From assembly GCA_040220235.1 (NCBI GenBank), contig JAVJTO010000017.1: DNA of 64,000 nt; one strand, 5' to 3'. The translations under genes were made by a program, and so were the position numbers. Of this stretch, positions 12,135 to 61,600 are shown piece after piece. Every line of letters starts with the position of its first letter. The stretch's first letter is position 1. The stretch is from Coleofasciculus sp. B1-GNL1-01 (GTDB lineage: Bacteria; Cyanobacteriota; Cyanobacteriia; Cyanobacteriales; Coleofasciculaceae). The notes beneath the pieces were generated by a model. It saw only the letters and a list, made by a program, of their open reading frames with translations, made no database searches and was not told the origin of the DNA.

Positions 12135-12668
12135 ATGAGTTCAATTCTAACTACCCCACTCACTGAATTTCTGTCTCAACCTAATATTGAGTCGTCTCCA
12201 GCATGGGAATTGATCAATGGGTGTGCGATACAAAAGCCGATGCCAACCCTTTTTCACTCGCGGCTACAACGCAATTTGGTTAATTATATTAACCGTCATA
12301 CGGATAGGTTTGAAGCGGTACAAGAACTACGTTGTCTAGTTCCGCCCTATTCTCCAGTCCCAGATATTTCTATTATTAGGATTGATCGTCTGTCGGAAGA
12401 GGATGGACCTTTTGATGGCGCACCCGATTGGTTGATTGAAATTCGCTCACCTGACCAAAGTACGTTAGATTTACAGAAAAAGATTCTCCATTGTCTCAGC
12501 AATGGTACACAATTAGCTTGGTTAATTGACCCCGGAAGTGAACAGGTTTGGGTATGGCAGGGAGATAACTTACCAACCATCTGTTCAGGTTCAGAGGCTT
12601 TGCCTATTTTGGGTAATTTGCCTCAATTGACTGTTGATGCTGTCATGGGAATGACTCGCCGCTTATAA
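12135..12668 (+). CDS. Uma2 family (PD-(D/E)xK) putative endonuclease
   Basis: ELING..QKPMP..HSRLQ, VPDI, PDWLIEIRSP, WLIDP. Confidence 0.88.
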   Translation: MSSILTTPLTEFLSQPNIESSPAWELINGCAIQKPMPTLFHSRLQRNLVNYINRHTDRFEAVQELRCLVPPYSPVPDISIIRIDRLSEEDGPFDGAPDWLIEIRSPDQSTLDLQKKILHCLSNGTQLAWLIDPGSEQVWVWQGDNLPTICSGSEALPILGNLPQLTVDAVMGMTRRL

Positions 12669-12959: not shown

Positions 12960-13236
12960 CTGATAATATAATTCACTCTCTGAGAATAAAGGGTGTTTGA
13001 GCCGGATTTTGCGACAAGGGGTAGGTGTTTTTTTGAGTGAACCTAAATTTTTGGCTGTAATGCCGTGGGGGTAAGGCTTTGGAGGTTTTTATCTATTCAG
13101 GAGGTTGTCGCACCTTACGCCGTAAGGGTTTCAGCGATTTTAGGACTTTGGGTTGGCTAGTCGAAGGGTTAAAATTAAGGGGTTGTCGCATTGGGGGATG
13201 CAACTTCTTTCTGGGAGAGGCTTTCAGGATGCGGCA
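12960..13236 (+). promoter_or_regulatory. Probable CRISPR leader
   Basis: Non-coding; GCGACAA and two TTGTCGCA inverted motifs plus recurring AAGG(G/C)TTT(CAG) boxes like cyanobacterial leaders; abuts repeat 1. Confidence 0.65.
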
Positions 13237-13344
13237 GTGACAATTCCCCTTCGGGGGGATTGAGGATTGAAACGATTGTCTGCCAAGCAATGGCAGCTTG
13301 CTGGGGGCGTGACAATTCCCCTTCGGGGGATTGAGGATTGAAAC
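13237..13344 (+). CRISPR. CRISPR mini-array: 2 repeats (13237-13273, 37 bp; 13309-13344, 36 bp) and one 35-bp spacer (13274-13308)
   Basis: GTGACAATTCCCCTTCGGGGG(G)ATTGAGGATTGAAAC twice; 9-bp stem with TTCG loop and 11-nt 3' tail ending ATTGAAAC; adjacent to I-C cas genes. Confidence 0.9.
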
Positions 13345-14015
13345 GGATAATTTCCCAACGCCGACTCATGACTAAACACCCATACCCCACGAGTTGCCAT
13401 CATTCCCCTGGCGGAGGAACGATCAAATTCAAAACACTTGACTAACGCTTGCCAAAATAACGCTAAATCCGCCTCCGTTACTCCAGTTTGTTTGGCAAAT
13501 TGGGGACAATAAAACCCATGCGCTTTATACAACCCGTAGGGAATAATATTTTTCCGCCCCATGGTTTTATTCTCTTTCCCCTGTTCATTGGTATCCGTTG
13601 CGGCACACCGCGTAATCGATAAATTCATCGGTAGCACCGGATCAAGGGATTCCCCAAAGGTTAATTGTACCGCACCGCGCACTTGTCCGGCATTTTTCCC
13701 CGTGGATAAAACCGCGCCAAACATACGAATGTCATAGAAATTCTCACACATCCAATCCCGTGCTGCAGCAACATCTTTGGGATTGGTTAGCCTTTTTTTC
13801 TTAGAGTCCACGGTTAACCCTTTAGCCGAAACCGCCTCATCAATTGCCTGATTTAAAATAGCGCCTTCGCTGACAAAAATCCGCTGATCTGATGCCAGGG
13901 TGACAAAGTTGCGAATCTTGCGCTTCAGACAAGCATCGGTGACTAATCCATGTCCGGTTTGTAAGTCAGTTCTGGGTGTATTGTCGGCATCTGGATCACC
14001 ATTGGGGTTTCCGCT
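13345..14015 (-). pseudogene. cas7: Type I-C Cas7 (Csd2), truncated at both ends
   Basis: Frame reads GNPNGDPDADNTPRTD...GLVTDACLKRKIRN...FYDIRMFGAV...MGRK...YGLY...FEFDRSSARG...SHESALGNYP, then runs into the CRISPR repeat. In-frame TAA at 14018-14016 and no start codon before GTG 13811. Confidence 0.88.
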
Positions 14016-15631
14016 TTAGTTTTCTTGGTATTCAACTCACTCCAAAAGCCTAAATCAAAATAAGCTTGAGCGCCAATACTAAACGTAGTAGGAATAGCTG
14101 TGGTTTGAGCCAATTCTGCGATCGCGCCATTAATCTGGGCAAGCTGGGAGACAAACCACTGGGCTAATCCACCCTCTAATACGGCTAAATGATTTTTTGC
14201 CCCCGATGCGAGGCGATGACTCATGGGAATGGGAGAAAATCCGGCTGTGGCATAACATTTAACTGCATTGGTATTAGCTAACTCGCTAGTTTGAGCCGCC
14301 CGTTGTAACTTGGCGTAGGTGGCTAAAAGTCGCCCATACTGAAACGCGATCGCTTCTTCTTCTGTCATTACCTTTTTCCCTTGTTCTTTCCTCACTTGTT
14401 TCACGCCTTCACTATACATATTTAATAGCACCGCACGGGGATAACTCACGGTTTGCTCAATTCGATTTCGCCCACAGACTCGTTGGATTAAATCCATAGG
14501 TAAGGCTTCACCATAAACAGCATTTCGCATCAATGCAGTTACAGTACGACTTTGGATTTCTTTCGCCTCCCGATACCCCGCCGCCGCCAACCGCCAGACG
14601 CCCAAATATCCGCAATTATCACGATTCCAGCCAATCACTTCTTGACGCTTTAACCATTGTTCATAGTGGTGAACAAACTCCGGTTCTTTGCCATGAATCC
14701 AATCGCGAACCACTAATCGACTGGTATAGCCGGATAACGCCAAAATATTAAACTCCCAATCGGGATTAATCTGCTGTGGTTTGTGGAAGAGATTCAGATA
14801 ATCTCGCACCGTTTCTACACTCGGCGTTTCAAATAAATGCCGCGTCATTCCCCCAGAATCTGCCCAAAAAACAAAGGTTGTACTACCGATATTAATATGA
14901 TGATTGTCGTCCCGTAATAGATAACTCAGGGCTTGGGAAAATTGTTCATCAGCTTCAGCACTAATGGGTGAAACTAATGCTCCCGATAAGCCATAAGACC
15001 AACAGGATTTATCATAGGCACTAATTAACGAAGCCCCCGCCGAATTTGTCCCCGGTACACCTTTAATCTGCAAGGAAAACTTGGTAGTTACGGGTAATTC
15101 CTCCCCCGTCACTAAACACTGCATCACCGGGCGATCGCTGGCGGTTAGTTCATCTACATGTCGCGCCCAAAATTTTTGCACGGTGGGTAAATCATGGATA
15201 TAGCCAGGAACTTGATCAATGGTAAAGGTGACGGTTTGCTTAGGTTCAAGTTCTTCGAGTTGAGGATGAGAATTGAGGAAGGTTAAGATAGCCTGAACCG
15301 CTGGTTCTTTTGTGGCTTGATAACAGCGTTGTAAGAGGGCGCGATAGGCTTTGGCTTTTTCTCCATCACCGAAAATATAGTCAACGGTATCGGTAATTAA
15401 TTTGGGCTGAATCGCATTGCGGCGAATATGGGGACAAGACAGTTTTTGACCCGGTTTTGGCTTTTTGGCTTTACCGTTGCGGTCATATTGCGGGGTATTG
15501 AGTTCGATAATCCGATTAAAACTGCCATCGGGATTGAGAATAATTTGCCAGCAAATTGTCGATTCGGCGTAGGCTTTAGCGGGAAGATTAAGGGTGTGGG
15601 AGAGTTTGACTAATTCAGTGAGTATGGTCAT
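13943..15631 (-). CDS. cas8c: Type I-C Cas8c (Csd1); C-terminal tail read from cas7 DNA out of frame
   Basis: MQCLVTGE, IKGVPG..AGASLIS, SYGL, FVFW, RLVVRDW, AFQYGRLLA, QAYFDLG; sits between cas5 and cas7. Confidence 0.9.
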   Translation of the reverse strand: MTILTELVKLSHTLNLPAKAYAESTICWQIILNPDGSFNRIIELNTPQYDRNGKAKKPKPGQKLSCPHIRRNAIQPKLITDTVDYIFGDGEKAKAYRALLQRCYQATKEPAVQAILTFLNSHPQLEELEPKQTVTFTIDQVPGYIHDLPTVQKFWARHVDELTASDRPVMQCLVTGEELPVTTKFSLQIKGVPGTNSAGASLISAYDKSCWSYGLSGALVSPISAEADEQFSQALSYLLRDDNHHINIGSTTFVFWADSGGMTRHLFETPSVETVRDYLNLFHKPQQINPDWEFNILALSGYTSRLVVRDWIHGKEPEFVHHYEQWLKRQEVIGWNRDNCGYLGVWRLAAAGYREAKEIQSRTVTALMRNAVYGEALPMDLIQRVCGRNRIEQTVSYPRAVLLNMYSEGVKQVRKEQGKKVMTEEEAIAFQYGRLLATYAKLQRAAQTSELANTNAVKCYATAGFSPIPMSHRLASGAKNHLAVLEGGLAQWFVSQLAQINGAIAELAQTTAIPTTFSIGAQAYFDLGFWSELNTKKTKAETPMVIQMPTIHPELTYKPDMD

Positions 15632-15673
15632 GGTTTTATTATAAGTAATAGTTTGTCAATGTCACTGTTCGAT

Positions 15674-15866
15674 CCCCCTAAATCCCCCTTCAAAAGGGGG
15701 ACTTTCTGAGCGAGTCTGCGTCGGCGGACTTGGTTTGTGTAGCTGCAACTTTCTTTTCAACAGAGAGTAAATATTTTATCTCCCTAAATCCCCCTTCAAA
15801 AGGGTGACTTTATAATCCAGTCCGCGCAGGCGGACTTGGTTTGTGTAGCTGCGACTTCTAGTCGCC
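15674..15866. repeat. Tandem duplication of a ~78-bp composite palindromic element between cas8c and cas5
   Basis: CCCTAAATCCCCCTTCAAAAGGG.GACTTT...GGCGGACTTGGTTTGTGTAGCTGC.ACTT at ~15674-15751 and ~15781-15857. Confidence 0.85.
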
Positions 15867-16487
15867 AGAGTAAATTACCCGACAATCCATCACACCTTTT
15901 TGAATCGAGGCGCGAAAAAATATCGGTTTTGCTCCTTCTGATGTAAACTCAATATGATGCAGCATTAATCCTAAATCGGTAGTTAAATCAATGGGCGTTT
16001 CATTCTCCGTTGGCTGACTAAAATACGCCACGAATTCTCGACAGCCTAAATAGGGTTGCTGAAAACATTGCCCCTTGGCTAATCGGCGTTTAAATATTTC
16101 CAGATATTTAGTTAAGGGATCTGTTGCATGAGACTGACGCTGCATCTGAATCGTGACTAAATAGGCGACATCGTTTAAAATAAGGGCATGTCGCTGAGTG
16201 CGATCGCTCTCAATTTCTAGGATTCCTCCACTTTGGGCGGTACGATGAGATTGACGCGATTTTAGGGTATTCCGTAGAATCGAAGCTTTCTGAATCGATT
16301 TAAGGAGACTAATCTGAATTACCTGATACTGAATTTCGGGTTTCCAGAAAATAGACTCAGCGATTCCTTTGGCGGCGGAGGGGGTAATTACATCATAAGT
16401 GACTTGTTCAGTTTTAAATTCGGGGCGGGTAAATAAAGCGCGATCGCCCCAAATTTTGAAGGTGATTTCGTTGGCTTGGCTACTCAT
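15858..16487 (-). CDS. cas5: Type I-C Cas5 (Cas5c/Cas5d)
   Basis: WGDRALFTRPEFKTE.VTYDVITPSAAKGI.ESIFWKP, RRL.KGQCFQQPYLGCREF, DLGLMLH. Confidence 0.95.
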   Translation of the reverse strand: MSSQANEITFKIWGDRALFTRPEFKTEQVTYDVITPSAAKGIAESIFWKPEIQYQVIQISLLKSIQKASILRNTLKSRQSHRTAQSGGILEIESDRTQRHALILNDVAYLVTIQMQRQSHATDPLTKYLEIFKRRLAKGQCFQQPYLGCREFVAYFSQPTENETPIDLTTDLGLMLHHIEFTSEGAKPIFFRASIQKGVMDCRVIYSGD

Positions 16488-16611: not shown

Positions 16612-18723
16612 ATGACTTCAGATTATCCACCAACTCATTCTATAATTCCTGATCAATCGCCTCAGTCTAACATCCGGATTTCTCGCCCTCCTCGTCAAGA
16701 TGGAACGGTTCAAACAGTTAAGCAACACTTAGAAGAAACAGGCGCGATCGCGGCTTTTGTTCACCCCCTAGCTGAAATCGCTGGAAAATGGCATGATTTA
16801 GGTAAATTTGACCCCACTTGGCAGCAGTATTTACAAGCAAGTATGGCGGGGAATAAATGTAAATCTCCTGGACATGCTATTCATGGCGCGGCGTTAGCCT
16901 GGAAAAAAGGACTTCATGGCGTAGCCTTTGCCATTTTAGGACATCATTCTGGATTACCTAATCTCGGTGGCGCAGATGGTATCCAGCAGAAGCTAAAAGG
17001 TGATCAGCATTGGCAATCCATCCAGGCGATCGCACAAAAAGAATTAGGCGATAATTTCTTTACTTGTCCTTCCCATTATCCAAAACATCCCCTCACCGAA
17101 GACTTATTAATTCGGATTATTTTCTCGGCGTTAGTTGATGCGGATCGAGAAAGTGCTGCCCGATTTCTGGGTGACTGGGATACCGTTACACCTCCAACTA
17201 TAGAGCAATTAATCCCCCAATTTGAAACCCACTATCACCATCTGATCCAAAAGGCAGCAGATACCCCTATCAACGCCATCCGCCGGGACATTTATCGCCA
17301 TTGTCAAGCCGCCGCCACCCTAAAACCGGGATTCTTTCGCCTCACCACTCCCACAGGTGGAGGTAAAACCCTAAGTGTCATGGCATTTGCCCTCCATCAT
17401 GCCCAAAACTACCAGCAAAAACGAATTATTTACTGTCCACCGTTTACCAGTATTATTGAACAAGCCGCCCAAGTTTACCGAGAGAGTTTCTCGGAAGATG
17501 CCGTATTAGAACATCATAGCGGTGTGGTATTTGATACCCATACCGATGAATTACACCATTACCAATTCGCCGCCCAACGTTGGGATTATCCGATTATTGT
17601 ATCCACAACGGTTCAACTGTTTGAAAGTCTCTTTAGTCGCCACCCCAGCCAATGCCGGAAAGTGCATCGCATTACCAATAGTGTGATTATTTTAGATGAA
17701 GTTCAGGCATTACCGACAAAGTACCTCAAACCGATCATGTCCATGTTACGGGGATTGGTGGACAAGTGGAATTGTTCTGTGGTATTCTGTTCAGCAACTC
17801 AACCCTGGTATGGAATTCTCGATCTGCCGGAAATTCGCGATATTGTACCGCTAAATCAGCGTCAAAGCCACGCCAAAACACTCCAGCGAGTCGAGTATCA
17901 CTATCAGCCACAAGCCTGGGATTGGCGCGATTTACTCCAGGATATCCGCCAACGTTCCCTGAAGAATGCCCTTGTCGTTGTTAGTGCTAAAACAGATGCC
18001 CGTCAGGGATTCAAGGTATTATCGGAACTGGGAAATACCTTTCACCTGAGTACGAATATGTACGCCGCCCACCGTCGCCGGGTACTCAACCAAGTGCGCG
18101 ATCGCTTGAACCAGGATTTGCCTGTTTATCTCATCAGCACCCAATTAATCGAAGCTGGCGTGGATATAGACTTCACGGCTGGGTATCGTGCGATCGCGGG
18201 CTTAGATTCTATCATCCAAACCGCAGGACGAGTCAACCGGAATCATAAATTCAATCACGCCATTTTTACCATATTTGAACTCAAAAATCAAGGGTTTCCG
18301 CAGCAAGACAGGGACAAAATTCAAATCACCCGCAATTTACTCAAAGCGGGTCAATCTTTACACGATGAAGCCAGTTGTCAAGACTATTTCAAAAGCTTTT
18401 TAGCCAATCCTGCGGTTAATTTAGATCAGCAGGAGATTCAAAAGCGGCGAGAAGGTTTTATGTTTAAAGATATTGATACTCACTTCCAAATGATTGAGGA
18501 TAATAAGGTTAATGTAATTATCCCCCTAGAAGACACCGCCAAACAACTGATTGAATTAGCGCAAAAGCAACAGAGATTGAGTCAAAAACAATGGCGACTC
18601 CTACTGCACTATGCTGTCGGCGTTACCCCAAAGCTAGCCGATGCTTACTCCCAAGAAATATTCCCCGGCTTACGAGTTTGGCAGGGCGACTATAATCCTA
18701 ATTTTGGTATTGTTACCGAATAG
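16612..18723 (+). CDS. cas3: Cas3 HD nuclease-helicase
   Basis: WHDLGK, GHHSGL, LVDAD (HD domain); PTGGGKT, DEVQ, SAT, STQLIEAGVDIDF, QTAGRVNR (SF2 helicase). Confidence 0.95.
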   Translation: MTSDYPPTHSIIPDQSPQSNIRISRPPRQDGTVQTVKQHLEETGAIAAFVHPLAEIAGKWHDLGKFDPTWQQYLQASMAGNKCKSPGHAIHGAALAWKKGLHGVAFAILGHHSGLPNLGGADGIQQKLKGDQHWQSIQAIAQKELGDNFFTCPSHYPKHPLTEDLLIRIIFSALVDADRESAARFLGDWDTVTPPTIEQLIPQFETHYHHLIQKAADTPINAIRRDIYRHCQAAATLKPGFFRLTTPTGGGKTLSVMAFALHHAQNYQQKRIIYCPPFTSIIEQAAQVYRESFSEDAVLEHHSGVVFDTHTDELHHYQFAAQRWDYPIIVSTTVQLFESLFSRHPSQCRKVHRITNSVIILDEVQALPTKYLKPIMSMLRGLVDKWNCSVVFCSATQPWYGILDLPEIRDIVPLNQRQSHAKTLQRVEYHYQPQAWDWRDLLQDIRQRSLKNALVVVSAKTDARQGFKVLSELGNTFHLSTNMYAAHRRRVLNQVRDRLNQDLPVYLISTQLIEAGVDIDFTAGYRAIAGLDSIIQTAGRVNRNHKFNHAIFTIFELKNQGFPQQDRDKIQITRNLLKAGQSLHDEASCQDYFKSFLANPAVNLDQQEIQKRREGFMFKDIDTHFQMIEDNKVNVIIPLEDTAKQLIELAQKQQRLSQKQWRLLLHYAVGVTPKLADAYSQEIFPGLRVWQGDYNPNFGIVTE

Positions 18724-18747
18724 GCGATCGTTTCAGTGACGGGTTGA

Positions 18748-19117
18748 GGAAGGGCGGGTTTTGTCGAAAGGTTATTGGTTTCTCGGTTAATTTTGTCCCT
18801 AAACCCGCCCCGACATTGAATTTATTGTGCCGATATCAGATTTCTAGATTAACCAGAAACTGGACAATAAAACCTAGCCGATTATTAGGCGCGATCGCCT
18901 CCCAAAGATATGGGGATAAATTGGGGATTCAGGTGTTCGGTTGGCTGAGATGGTGGGGAAGGGCGGGTTTTGTTGAAAGGTTATTGGTTTCTCGGTTAAT
19001 TTTGCCCCCAAACCCGCCCCGATATTGGATTTATTGTGTCAAGATCAGATTGATAGATTAACCGGAAACTGGGCAATAAAACCTAGCCAATTATTAGACG
19101 CGATCGCATCCCAAAGA
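18748..19117. repeat. Two diverged 161-bp direct repeats (18748-18908, 18957-19117), each starting with a GGGCGGGTTT...AAACCCGCCC unit
   Basis: Colinear by direct comparison, with scattered substitutions. Confidence 0.88.
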
Positions 19118-19250
19118 CGTAGGGGCGGGTTTAGGGATTAAAGGAGTTAACCCACCTCAAAATAAACAACGAAACCCGCCCTGATCCCAACCTAAATTTG
19201 ACGAATGATGAATGACAAATGACGAATGACAAATGACGAATAACAAATAA

Positions 19251-30832: not shown

Positions 30833-33800
30833 ATGTATCGTCATTTATACCGTCTTAGTGTTGTTACTGCCTCCTTACTCATTGGGGTGAGTTGTCCGTT
30901 ACCAGGGGTGGGGAATAGTGGGGGAAGTGGTGCTGCTTTGGCGCAGGCGCAGACAAGAGAAGAACGGAATAACGAGGCGCTGCGCCTATTAGAAGTAGGA
31001 GTTCAGCAGTATCAGCAAGGTCAGTTTGGAGAAGCTTTGGAGACGCTTCAAACTGTTTTAGTTATTGTCAGAGAAACTGGAGAGCGCCAATATGAAGGAA
31101 TAACTCTCCTCGGTATTGGGAGAGTTTACCAAAGCCTGGGACAGTACCCACAAGCGTTGGAGTCTTTTCAACAAGCTTTAGCCATTGCCCAAGACATTGG
31201 TGATCGGGCAGGAGAAGGTACAAGGCTCAGCAATATTGGGTCAGTTTACCGCAACCTGGGACAGTACCCACAAGCGTTGGAGTTTTATCAACAAGCCTTA
31301 GCCATTGTCCAAGACATTGGTGATAGGAGAGGAGAAGGTGCAACACTCAACAATATTGGGGAAGTTTATCGCAATCTGGGACAGTACCCACAAGCGTTGG
31401 AGTTTTATCAACAAGCTTTAGCCATTCGCACTGAAATTGGTGATAAGAGAGGAGAAGTTACAACACTCAACAATATTGGGTTAGTTTACGACAACTTGGG
31501 ACAGTACCCAAAAGCGCTGGAGTCTTATCAACAAGCTTTAGCCATTCTCCAAGACATTGGTGACTCTTCAGGAGAAGGTGCGATACTCAGCAATATTGGG
31601 TTAGTTTACTCCAACTTGGGACAGTACCCACAAGCGTTGGAGTCTTTTCAACAAGTCTTAGCCATTGCCCAAGATATTGGTGATAAGAGAGGAGAAGTTG
31701 TAACACTCAACAATATTGGGGTAGTTTACTTAAACTTGGGACAATACCCACAAGCGTTGGAGTCTTTTCAAAAAGTCTTAGCCATTGCCCAAGATATTGG
31801 TGACTCTTCAGGAGAAGGTAAAACGCTCAACAATATTGGGTTAGTTTACTTCAACTTGGGACAATACCCACAAGCGTTGGAGTCTTTTCAACAAGTCTTA
31901 GCCATTGCCCAAGATATTGGTGACTCTTCAGAAGAAGGTAAAACGCTCAACAATATTGGGGCAGTTTACGACAGCCTGGGACAGTACCCAAAAGCGCTGG
32001 AATATTATCAACAAGCTTTAGCCATTGCCCAAGATATTGGTGACTCTTCAGGAGAAGGTAAAACGCTCAACAATATTGGGTTAGTTTACTCCAACTTGGG
32101 ACAATACCCAAAGGCGTTGGAGTCTTATCAACAAGCCTTAGCCATTGCCACGGAAATTGGTAACCGGGCATTGGAAGGGACAACGCTCAATAATATTGGG
32201 GGAGTTTATCGCAATCTGGGACAGTACCCAAAAGCGTTGGAGAATTATCAACAAGCCTTAGCCATTCACACGGAAATTGGTGATAAGAGAAGAGAAGGTT
32301 CGACGCTCAACAGTATTGGGTTAGTTTACTCCAACTTGGGACAATACCCACAAGCGTTGGAGTACTATCAACAAGCTTTAGCCATTGCCCAAGATATTGG
32401 TGACTCTTCAGGAGAAGGTAAAACGCTCAACAATATTGGGGCAGTTTACGGCTACCTGGGAGAGTACCCACAAGCGTTGGAATATTATCAACAAGCCTTA
32501 GCCATTCACAAGGAAATTGGTAACAAGGGAGGAGAAGGGACAACGCTCAACAATATTGGGGAAGTTTATCGCAATCTGGGACAGTACCCACAAGCGTTGG
32601 AATCTTATCAAAAAGCCTTAGCCATTGCCACGGAAATTGGTAACAAGGGAGGAGAAGGGACAACGCTCAATAATATTGGGGGAGTTTACGCCGACCTAGG
32701 ACAGTACCGACAAGCGTTGGAATCTCATCAAAAAGCCTTAGCCATTGCCACGGAAATTGGTAACCGGGCAGTAGAAGGTACAACGCTCAACAATATTGGG
32801 TTGATTTACAATATACAAGGTAAGTATTCCCAAGCCGAAATCACCTTATTCGCAGCTATTGAGGTTTGGGAGTCACTGCGACAACGAAACTTAAAAGATG
32901 ACCAGAAAATCTCCATTTTTGAACGGCAAGCGACTACCTACCTTTGGCTGCAATATGCCTTAGTCGCACAGAATAAAATTGACAAAGCCTTAGAAATTGC
33001 CGAACGCAGTCGCGGACGTGCCTTGGTGGAGTTATTAGACTCAAAACTCTCACAAAACCCCAGCAATCAACTCAATATCAAACCCCCAACCCTTCAAGAA
33101 ATTAAGCAAATTGCCTCTGAACAAAACGCCACACTGGTTCAGTATTCCACAATAGGGTATGAAGCTATCTACATCTGGGTTATCAAACCCACCGGAGAAA
33201 TTGCCTTTAAACAAGTAGACCTCAAATCCCTGAACACATCCCTACAAGAACTTGTTACCACCAGCCGTGATAATATTGGTGTCAGAGGTCGCAGTCTCTT
33301 CGATGTAACCGTCGTCAATCCCCAACCCGAAAACTCAACCGAAAAATTACGGCAACTCCATAAACTACTCATCGCCCCCATTGCCGACTTGCTACCCAAA
33401 GACCCCAACGAGCGAGTCATCTTCATCCCGCAAGCCTCCCTCTTTCTCGTCCCCTTCCCCGCCCTGCAAGACGAGCAAGGCAACTATTTAGTCGAAAAAC
33501 ATACCATCCTCACCGCACCCGCCATCCAAGTTCTCGACTTAACCCGCAAGCAGAAGCCAAACACTCAAAACTCAACCGGAGATGTGCTAGTCGTCGGCAA
33601 TCCTACCATGCCCAAAATCCAATTTGGGGAATTAGTTGCCAACTTAACTCCTCTCCCTGGTGCAGAACGAGAAGCCAATCAAATTGCCGACTTCTTCAAC
33701 ACCGAAGCCCTGATAGGTAGCCAAGCCACCAAAGCAGCAGTGATGGAGAAAATGCAGCAGGCACGCATCATTCATCTAGCCACCCACGGCTTACTCCATG

Positions 33801-58673: not shown

Positions 58674-61600
58674 CTATCTGCTCTCATTTGATTCCACACG
58701 GAAACGTTCTACAGAATTGAGTAGATCTCGTGCTACACCAACTAAGTTTTGTAAGGCACTGGATACCCGTTGTGCTTCCTGAGAGGTTTCTTGGGCAGTT
58801 AGTTCAACCGATTGCATGACTTGGGCAACAGCACGGGATGTTTCGGTTTGCTCCACTGTATCCGCTTTAATTGCCCGCACCAGCGCATCAATCCGATTGG
58901 ACACTTGAATAATATCTTCCAATGCTTGTTTGGCTTGCTCTGCCCGTTTGGTTCCATCAATAACCTGCTGGGTACCTTCTTCCATCGCCGTCATCACCGA
59001 CCCAGTTTCACTTTGAATCTGCATGACGATTTGCTCAATTTCTTTGAGTGCCTTGGCTGAACGGTCTGCCAGTTGCCGTACTTCATCGGCAACGACGGCA
59101 AACCCTCGACCCGCCTCTCCCGCTCGAGCTGCCTCGATACTGGCATTGAGCGCTAACAGGTTGGTTCGGGATGCAATTGTGGAAATTACGGCAACAATTT
59201 TGGAAATTTCCTGGGAAGACTCAGCCAATCGCTTGACTTTTCGCGTAGTTTCTGCTACGGTTTCCCGAATTTGCAAGATGCCTGCCACCGTATGTTCTAC
59301 CGCGTGACCACCTCTGTGGGCGACATCCGCAGCGGTGTGGGCAACTTCCTCGGCTTCCCGTGCGGCTTCAGCGACTCGCTGAATGGAGTCGGTCATCACC
59401 TGAACGGAGTTGAGGGTAACGGCTAGTTCCTCAGCTTGGCGCAAGGCGTCATTGGATAAACTTCCGGCAAATGCCGCGCTTTCAGTCGAACCCTTGGTCA
59501 CTTTACGGGCGGCATCTTTTACTTGTTGAACGATTTCCCGTAGATTTTGAATGGTTAGGTTAAAGGAGTCAGCCACTGCCCCCAAAACGTCGGCTGTTAC
59601 TTCAGCTTGTACCGTTAAGTCCCCGCGTGCAGCTCCTTCAACATCATCTAGCAATCGAATTACCTGGCGTTGCAGGTCTTCTTTGGCTTGTTCTTGTTCT
59701 TCGGCTTTGCGGGTGGCTTCGCTGGTGGTGGTGAGGATCACTCGCGCCATCTGGTTGAACCCTGAAGCCAGTTGACCCAGTTCTCCCTCGGAGTAGATCG
59801 GGACACTGACATTAAGATTTCCCTGAGCAACGGCATCAAACTGGGTTTGTAAATCCACTGTGACTTGTTGAATCTGGCGAGTGGTGATCCGACCCAGAAA
59901 CAGTGTAATGCCAAAACTAGCCGCAAATGCTGCACCACTGGCTAAAGCATGGGCAAATTTGAGATTCGCGATCGCGGGTTGAGCTTGCCCTTCTGGTACT
60001 GAACTTCGCGCAGCAATACTTTGTGCCGAAAAACTGACTAAGGCAACGACAAAAGCGGAGGCAATCCCAGCCGCAAACGCCATAATCCACTGTTTATGAT
60101 GGAGAGAAGCATTTTCAAAGGGAGCCAGCCACCCTTGATCAACATTAACGATAGGTTCATGTCCCCCCTCTTTGGCTTGACTAAAAACTGGGAGTTGTTC
60201 AGTTGAGCTACCAATACTGAAAATTTCTTCATCACTATCAACTGAGCGATACTCTTGAGCCGATTGCTGGTGAGCCGCTACACTATCTCGATCTCGGACG
60301 GCATCGCCGTTTTCGCTAACTCCCTCACTTTCGCCACCTGCTGGTATGACTCCACTGTTACTTAAAACATCAAAATCTGATTCACTCGCGCCCGACTCAG
60401 CTAATTCATCCTGATCGTCTATGGCAAAATCGGGAAGAGAGCCTAAATCATCTTCAAATACATCGAAAGCGTCTAAAAAGTCTTTGTCCGTTTCAAGTTC
60501 TGAGAAGTTCTCAGCATCAGCCTCAGCAACTTCATCCATAGTGAATGAGTCATTGCCAAAAGCATCGTCAAAGCTCTCAAAGTCAAAGTGATCATCGGGA
60601 GCGTTAAATCCATTTTTATCGAAGTCTGATTCATCCTGAGTGTAGTCCTGGCTTTCAAATGCTTCAATCGCCTCATCCGTCTCCTCAGCCGAATAGTCAA
60701 ACTCATCGGTATCTGTTGGTAAACTTTCCCCCAACTCCCCTGAATCCATTAGTAGGGTTTCGTCTTCGTAAACGGGATGGTCTGGATATGACTCATCAAT
60801 CGATTCATCATGCCAATCCTCCATTTCCTGATCAACGTCCGATAAGTCTTCATCGAAATGGGATTCTGACTCATAAGAGGGTAAACTCTGCTCCTGAGCA
60901 TCTTCAAATTCAGGGGCGCTACCGGGAGGCATGACAAATGTTGCCGCCGTATCATCCTCAGACTCCGCTGAAAAGTCCTCAAAATTTTCCTGGTAATCTG
61001 CCTCACTAAAGGAGGTGTCATTTAAATCAAAATCACTCGCTGTTTCCTCAAAATTTTCCTGATAATCTGTCTCACTAAAGGGAGTATCATTTAAATCGAA
61101 ATCACTGGCTGTTTCCTCAAAATTCTCCTGGTAATCTGCTTCACTAAAGGGAGTGTCATTTAGATCGAAATTATTCCCTGTTTCCTCAACGTTTTCCTGG
61201 TAATCTGCCTCGCTAAAGGGGGTGTCATTTAGATCAAAATCACTCGATGACTCATAATCTTCATAGTCTACCTCAGCAAAGGGGTTGTCATTTAGATCAA
61301 AATCACTCGATGACTCATAAAGATTGTCAACATCACCATTCTCTTCGTCCAAACCGGACAAGGCAAATGGATTGGATTCATCTACAGAACTTGGCTCGTC
61401 CGTCGTCTCTGATTCAAGAGCTGAACTATCCAGGGGTTCGGCAAAGGGCGAAGATGAGGTTGATTCAAAATCATCTCCTATTCCCGCTTCATCGAAATCT
61501 AAAGCCCCTAAATCGAAATCCTCAGACTCATCAATAGACTCATCAATCGCTTCCGAGTCTTGCCAGGTTTCTAATGTAGGTATCTCATTTAAATCGTCGG

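Follow-up and report, generated by a model that had tools for sequence, protein, structure and literature searches.

A CRISPR repeat joined to a truncated cas7 gene in Coleofasciculus, and other deletions at the same repeat edge

Architecture of the Locus

The stretch of DNA analysed here (64,000 nt of the Coleofasciculus sp. B1-GNL1-01 contig JAVJTO010000017.1, hereafter the window; its genome is denoted G000) holds a complete set of type I-C effector genes, cas8c, cas5c, cas7c and cas3, all scoring above NCBIfam cut-offs, together with a short CRISPR array whose second repeat abuts cas7. The features are as follows.

12967..13236 (left edge approximate), plus strand: CRISPR leader, the last 60 nt type I-D-like
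13237..13273, plus strand: repeat 1, 37 nt, forming a 9-bp hairpin and then a 3' tail of 11 nt (AGGAUUGAAAC)
13274..13308, plus strand: the single true spacer, 35 nt; the same spacer occurs in sediment run X1
13309..13344, plus strand: repeat 2, 36 nt, its G-run short by one G (5 G), folding retained; the 1-nt loss is identical in X1
13344..13347, no strand: deletion joint, 152 bp missing relative to the intact alleles G002 and L013, microhomology CGGA
13224..13344, minus strand: incidental read-through tail of cas7 over the array, 39 residues, stop at 13224-13226
13345..14009, minus strand: remnant of cas7 (Csd2, type I-C), without its first 22 and last 43 codons
14007..14010, no strand: second deletion, 125 bp, microhomology GTT, which took out the stop of cas8c, the start of cas7 and the DNA between them
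13943..15631, minus strand: cas8c (Csd1), full length, its C-terminus changed and lengthened by the 125-bp deletion; TIGR01863 above cut-off
15858..16487, minus strand: cas5c (TIGR01876)
16612..18723, plus strand: cas3 (HD and helicase; TIGR01587/TIGR01596), divergent from cas5c and followed by hrcA

An earlier sequence-only reading of this DNA had described a leader, repeat 1, a 35-nt spacer and repeat 2 on the plus strand, with cas7 beginning immediately afterwards. The arrangement is borne out at 13237-13344, save that the G missing from repeat 2 had gone unmentioned, and translation confirms that the plus strand from 13345 onward is antisense to cas7, the minus-strand frame reading ...SHESALGNYP and then passing through both repeats to 13224. 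This read-through is itself uninformative, because the reverse strand of the repeat is stop-free in the frames seen (window and G002). The cas7 sequence that follows repeat 2 continues uninterrupted for 665 nt with no further repeat. A search of the assembly found two copies of the repeat, both at this site, and a single copy of the cas7 stretch.

Orthologous loci are present in 6 of the 61 genomes searched, all of the same genus (five of its eight other genomes), and a scan of metagenomes added one further locus, L013, an intact seventh allele. The leader is conserved in G002, G003, G006, G007 and L013, and open reading frames for all four effector genes persist in G002 and G006. In the loci that reach far enough, cas4, cas1 and cas2 were found neither between cas3 and hrcA nor beside the array. 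The six genomes have no spacer in common, and therefore the array took up spacers without a local cas1. In G002 the array is convergent with cas7, the last repeat lying 19 nt from the cas7 stop, a layout suggesting that the array faces cas7 by design. A regulatory mini-array was also considered and dropped, as relatives hold 4-7 unrelated spacers at the same place. The locus in the window is a decaying, adaptation-less type I-C system, and it is dead.

Several other features of the window may be noted. An internal ATG of cas8c lies behind a purine-rich stretch 141 codons before the end of the gene (14366-14385); we presume that it could start a small Cas11c subunit. Upstream of the leader (12135-12668) there is a putative endonuclease of the Uma2 family, found in G000, G003, G004 and G006 but missing from this position in G002. 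Short, duplicated mobile-like elements occupy the interval between cas8c and cas5c (15661-15857) and the DNA past cas3 (18722-19124), and long tandem repeats of coding type, with periods of 120 and 69 nt, occur at 30912-32891 and 60976-61318.

What the Deletions Removed

Alignment with intact G002 and L013 resolves the missing 152 bp into the 19-nt trailer and 133 nt of cas7 (the last 43 codons and the stop), with the joint falling at the proline codon of the LGNYP motif. The cas7 genes of G002, G006 and L013 are open and end 43 residues past this motif, in agreement with the earlier statement that Csd2/Cas7 normally runs tens of residues beyond LGNxP; in G002, the same 43 residues follow the proline. 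Thus the cas7 3' end has indeed been deleted, as had been proposed, and relatives do not naturally end here. The proposed loss of the rest of the array does not follow from the alignment, since the 152 bp hold no spacer. Similarly, the break had been placed exactly on the repeat/spacer boundary: the joint does lie at the 3' edge of the repeat, but the four shared nucleotides CGGA leave its exact base ambiguous relative to G002, anywhere between 1 nt within the repeat and 3 nt past it.

The other end of the gene is damaged too, which the sequence-only reading had not mentioned: the 125-bp deletion removed the first 22 codons, and the earliest usable start is a GTG at 13811, about 70 codons inside. 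Accordingly, TIGR02589 (Cas7/Csd2) matches the window over model positions 13-240 of 284, compared with 1-270 for intact G002 Cas7. With 22 N-terminal and 43 C-terminal residues gone, the Cas7 backbone subunit is not intact and the window cas7 is dead at both ends. The gene has been damaged separately in G003, by a 314-bp deletion with 0 nt of microhomology, and in G007, by a stop codon.

The Joint in Independent Reads

A junction at a CRISPR repeat raises the concern of misassembly, and the highest share of the window's words in any listed sequencing run is 0.56, so that the source reads are not among them. Four runs were mapped on the intact allele (X1, X3, X5 and X10). A contig of the sediment run X1 shows the same 152-bp skip, joining 6626 to 6779 of L008 at a depth of 8.7, with the same missing G; the window's spacer predicts precisely this pattern of gaps and these 16 mismatches, while six other spacers of the same length give 21-26. 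The X1 cas7 differs from the window at 8 sites or more, carrying at least six variants absent from the window and missing at least two that the window has. Thus joint, spacer and 5-G repeat are all shared with a differing cas7 haplotype. Moreover, the 4 nt common to the two sides of the joint are too few to cause a misjoin in the assembly graph. The junction can therefore be taken as genuine, and an assembly artefact is exceedingly improbable. The allele in X10 is intact.

These comparisons point to a joint that is inherited and present on more than one haplotype. At the cas7 5' end X1 has a 4-nt loss and not the 125-bp deletion, although this lies on a separate contig, possibly of another strain. 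Because X1 carries the joint without the larger deletion, the 3' joint probably predates the 5' damage.

Antisense RNA behind the Last Repeat

It had been suggested that the joint would let the leader transcript continue as antisense cas7 RNA behind a crRNA-like handle. Such a transcript would not be new to the joint: in the intact alleles the cas7 stop comes a mere 19 nt after the last repeat, and we found no terminator-like site in that interval. Since intact alleles would themselves make a terminal guide-like RNA after 19 nt, the joint is not its cause. Scans for promoters and terminators gave nothing exceeding shuffles. As the last repeat can still fold, a guide-like RNA running from it into antisense cas7 is possible; if made, it would have no second target and no Cas7 left to load it. 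The passages available of a study on Cas12a (PMC6610086) describe how an intact terminal repeat can give an extraneous crRNA from downstream sequence; in the window that sequence would be antisense cas7, in a type I system.

Other Deletions at the Repeat's 3' Edge

Besides the window, three of the five related genomes (G003, G004 and G007) carry deletions that begin at the 3' edge of the repeat. In G004 the last repeat is joined to cas7 with the loss of 41 bp and 1 nt of microhomology, replacing only the last seven residues. In G003 a single repeat abuts the degenerate terminal repeat with no spacer between them, and in G007 the last repeat is followed by only the last 24 nt of the degenerate terminal repeat. 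The G007-type joint recurs in runs X3 and X5, in X5 immediately after the first repeat. Microhomology at these three joints amounts to 1-2 nt, and at least a C is common to all four. One break is thus constant, at the repeat 3' edge, and the other variable in the window, G004, G003 and G007, a small sample. None of the seven assembled alleles (six genomes and L013) shows a clipped repeat or a partial spacer at the trailer end.

With breaks spread evenly over the 72-nt repeat-spacer unit and the window itself left out, the chance of edge-anchored left breaks is approximately 8e-4 for two events and 2e-5 for three, rough figures that assume independence. An extra GAAAC in G006 (a 5-nt duplication, likely slippage) and the trailer of G002/L013 (ordinary repeat recombination) were left uncounted. 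There are four events only, G003 and G007 may be nested, and the G004 joint is without read support; moreover, the spacers lost from G003 and G004 may have offered longer microhomology.

Two further observations concern repeat variants and repeat ends. The G004 array (L010:8088-8628) has a diverged leader and a variant of the repeat that begins with CTAAC; this variant, which the degenerate terminal repeat of G003 resembles, may be an older form. Separately, an ATG of cas6 is preceded, at a distance of one base, by the end of a I-D-type repeat in five genomes (G000:C59 near its start; L067, L071, L095 and L103); a homologue in G002 lacks a repeat at that point. This abutment is possibly another old repeat-edge joint, or else a conserved layout.

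Anchoring was looked for at other loci as well. A second orphan array, intact in G008, has suffered five different deletions in G000, G001, G003, G004 and G006 (G000:C84 about 80200; L112-L118), and none of the five ends on a repeat boundary. A lone repeat in G003, considered as an ectopic insertion, was rejected as such, as it proved to be an orphan array in decayed form. Among 29 I-D-type repeat ends, 15 of them without a homologue to compare, we found no clear anchored deletion. In Escherichia coli the stretch between trailer and iap is kept in 5415 of 5426 genomes; of the 11 under 80% cover two were examined, and both truncations were made by insertion sequences. Even at the present locus the deletions of 125 bp (3 nt of microhomology) and 314 bp (0 nt) are unanchored. 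Edge anchoring is thus shown at one locus only.

A I-D-like Leader on a I-C Locus

The last 60 nt of the leader, compared ungapped and in register, are identical at 27-33 of 60 positions to each of six I-D-type array leaders, a level equalled by 0-3 of 5000 shuffles, whereas against three other leaders identity is 19-21 of 60, no better than shuffles. The spacer length has its mode at 34 both in the arrays of this locus (26 spacers) and in those of I-D type (206 spacers); leader, repeat length and spacer lengths all resemble I-D arrays. A I-C effector locus hence coexists with a I-D-like leader (window 13177-13273 against L025, L026, L027, L028, L030 and L055). In G006 the cas1 adjoining one such I-D-type array is Cas1d.

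According to passages of the respective papers, leader motifs govern I-D uptake (PMC6607411), the sharing of adaptation modules is common (PMC7145637) and the I-D PAM is GTN (PMC10212523). Against this background the locus is a candidate natural hybrid, combining a I-C effector with a I-D leader and perhaps with spacers selected by a GTN PAM. The sole detectable cas1 of G000 encodes a Cas4-Cas1 fusion, and the arrays next to it differ in both repeat and leader. The I-D module must therefore have been either lost or left unassembled in G000, which counts against the integrase mechanism proposed below; a weak match beside its I-D array is a possible cas2 remnant. More broadly, the arrays of this genome contain at least five kinds of repeat for one cas1 (C26 64988-65059, C51 118142-120042). 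In the G004 I-D array, a DUF433 and DUF5615 gene pair, which we take to be a toxin-antitoxin, lies between repeats upstream of cas6 (L067:1009-1490).

Was cas7 Once a Spacer Target?

The joint could have arisen through autoimmunity. A 35-nt spacer taken from cas7 in the same orientation would have exposed the gene to attack by I-C Cascade-Cas3, and recombination between spacer and gene would then have removed the PAM together with the interval. The product would look exactly like the joint seen, and there are precedents for the individual steps: available passages of PMC5737086 record uptake hotspots around active arrays, and those of PMC8616872 cite spacer-target recombination (Varble 2019) and anti-cas spacers (Almendros 2016).

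The PAM of type I-C is TTC (given as the complement GAA in passages of 10.1101/2022.05.30.494039), and the sequence-only reading had looked to a TTC just 5' of the native cas7 site. This expectation fails: the native triplet before the joint is GTC, and sliding the joint yields AGT, TCG, CGG or GGA, so that none of the five positions allowed by the microhomology gives TTC. GTC does fit the GTN of I-D adaptation, as 5% of sites do by chance, and one of the 206 I-D-type spacers has a match at 32 of 33 positions in G000, with GTT just before the matching site. However, the native triplets at the other testable joints, GCC in G004 and CTC in G007, fit neither motif, leaving the required PAM missing in two of three.

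Spacer content speaks against self-targeting too. None of the 26 spacers of these arrays matches a cas gene (best 23 of 33), and no protospacer for them was found in G000; spacer 1 in particular reaches at best 25 of 35 positions there, with no sensible PAM. Spacer 1 gave no protospacer in viral contigs or nine genomes of the genus, and only matches of E about 4 in phage records. The same holds for the G004 array searched against 52 genomes and for the G002 array against plasmids and the genus, and the repeat itself was not found in viral contigs. In addition, a 4-nt microhomology is not predicted by spacer-gene recombination, and the Pyrococcus protospacers downstream of the first spacer, as passages of PMC5737086 present them, lie mostly on the minus strand, an orientation leading to inversion. 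Nothing is self-targeted now, because the genome contains no second target copy of the cas7 'second spacer', in front of which stands the AAC of the repeat. The idea of a fossil of escape from autoimmunity thus retains the agreement of GTC with GTN, but the missing TTC, should this Cas8c use the motif of its type, and the misfits in G004 and G007 count against it, and we regard a cas7-derived spacer as an unlikely source of the joint.

A Proposed Mechanism for Edge-Anchored Deletions

The alternative proposal of the sequence-only reading, that a cas7 DNA end was joined by Cas1-Cas2, is favoured by the three of five relatives that are broken at the repeat 3' edge. We propose that an integrase borrowed from a I-D system makes nicks or joints at the repeat/spacer edge, and that DNA downstream is then deleted during repair through 1-4 nt of microhomology, an explanation to which we attach about even confidence. 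A I-D Cas4-Cas1-Cas2 module would add spacers to the I-C array in trans, and its attack on the repeat/spacer edge would occasionally be incomplete, resulting either in a disintegration nick or in the one-ended insertion of a long chromosomal end. On the leader-repeat side the exact end would be retained, while the far side would be trimmed and rejoined through 1-4 nt of microhomology, at the cost of a spacer, the old terminal repeat, the trailer or the end of cas7. In the window the event would have cost cas7 its last 43 codons; the array probably gained one spacer later on, and the cas7 5' end would then have decayed separately. Breakage at the edge followed by microhomology repair explains why the left ends are fixed and the right ends vary, why all joints have a C in common, and why the overlap in the window is 4 nt.

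The separate steps have some support in the literature, as far as the passages at hand go. The repeat/spacer edge is the second integration site, where the prespacer's PAM end is joined (10.1101/2022.05.30.494039); the type II integrase in vitro makes frequent one-ended insertions, and water-mediated disintegration leaves a nick (PMC8390005); and bacterial end-joining over 1-9 bp has been described (PMC6990116).

CGGA lies within that same range. In a rival history, ordinary microhomology deletion or replication slippage struck an unselected locus and the coincidence with the edge made the joint visible. The intact trailer and the cas7 site both start with GGA; if the left end is fixed at the repeat, at least 4 nt are available at 18 of the 870 possible right ends, and the window uses one of these. 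Additional cas7 breaks in G000, G003 and G007 and the erosion of the second orphan array by short-homology deletions regardless of repeat edges also fit plain decay. It leaves unexplained the G003, G004 and G007 joints, whose selection did not depend on the edge and which have only 1-2 nt of microhomology; although it could explain the window's own joint, we consider ordinary decay an unlikely account.

A transposase acting on one of the short mobile repeats of the genus might also have made the cut at the repeat edge, or deleted adjoining DNA when such an element was excised. Short mobile-like repeats inserted into the terminal repeat do close several I-D arrays, yet those insertions sit within the repeat and not at its last base, and none of the four joints retains an element of this kind, which makes this a very unlikely cause. 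Truncation of I-D-type terminal repeats by short mobile-like repeats is in itself frequent (L065, L068, L069, L070, L104, L105 and L106).

Returning to the integrase, a bolder version may be put forward tentatively, at less than even confidence: the I-D enzyme, acting like a transposase, would repeatedly join the spacer edge of the leader-proximal repeat to the chromosome into cas7, and the GTC case, one base from TTC, would perhaps also record how a mismatched hybrid system escaped attacking itself.

Taken as one broken gene, the locus is an ordinary case; the small, testable signal is recurrence at the repeat edge. If the integrase mechanism is true, spacer uptake would be a built-in route of self-destruction of CRISPR loci. 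The frequent loss of CRISPR-Cas is usually explained by drift, self-targeting and recombination between repeats; edge-fixed deletions would be a further cause, a mutational one linked to the very uptake of spacers. They would also give an in vivo footprint of one-ended insertion or disintegration nicks and, if true, a warning that CRISPR recording tools can delete flanking DNA. In the literature searched, titles and abstract openings described no deletion anchored at the 3' edge of a repeat, while supplements and subscription papers may record some.

Comparison with Known Systems

In its effector part the locus belongs to type I-C. It shares all four effector genes and a hairpin repeat with an 11-nt tail, and its Cas7 aligns with that of the Desulfovibrio Cascade (PDB 7KHA) over residues 9-282 (E 1e-87). 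It departs from type I-C in being without cas4, cas1 and cas2, in its divergent cas3, in an array convergent with cas7, in the I-D-like leader and in the broken cas7. Loci that share an adaptation module in trans (PMC7145637) likewise include effector loci that have no cas1-cas2 of their own; the available passages of that study give no example of a separate site combining a I-C effector with a leader of I-D type.

The orphan I-F arrays of E. coli with anti-cas spacers (Almendros et al. 2016, as cited in passages of PMC8616872) resemble the window in that an array is tied to the loss of its own cas genes. In the I-F case, a true cas-matching spacer is flanked by a repeat on either side, and none of the cas genes is left. 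In the window, by contrast, the cas7 sequence extends over 665 nt, and none of the true spacers has a match among the cas genes.

The loss of spacers when repeats recombine or slip (PMC8047081) explains short arrays, and probably the G002/L013 trailer. However, that process makes repeat-to-repeat joints, is said to spare the trailer end, and cannot join a repeat to unrelated DNA. The Cas1-Cas2 studies (PMC8390005; 10.1101/2022.05.30.494039) were made in vitro with other subtypes, and their available passages deal with repair into full spacers and not with deletion of the neighbouring chromosome; nevertheless, the chemistry they describe gives a break or a joint exactly at the 3' edge of the repeat.
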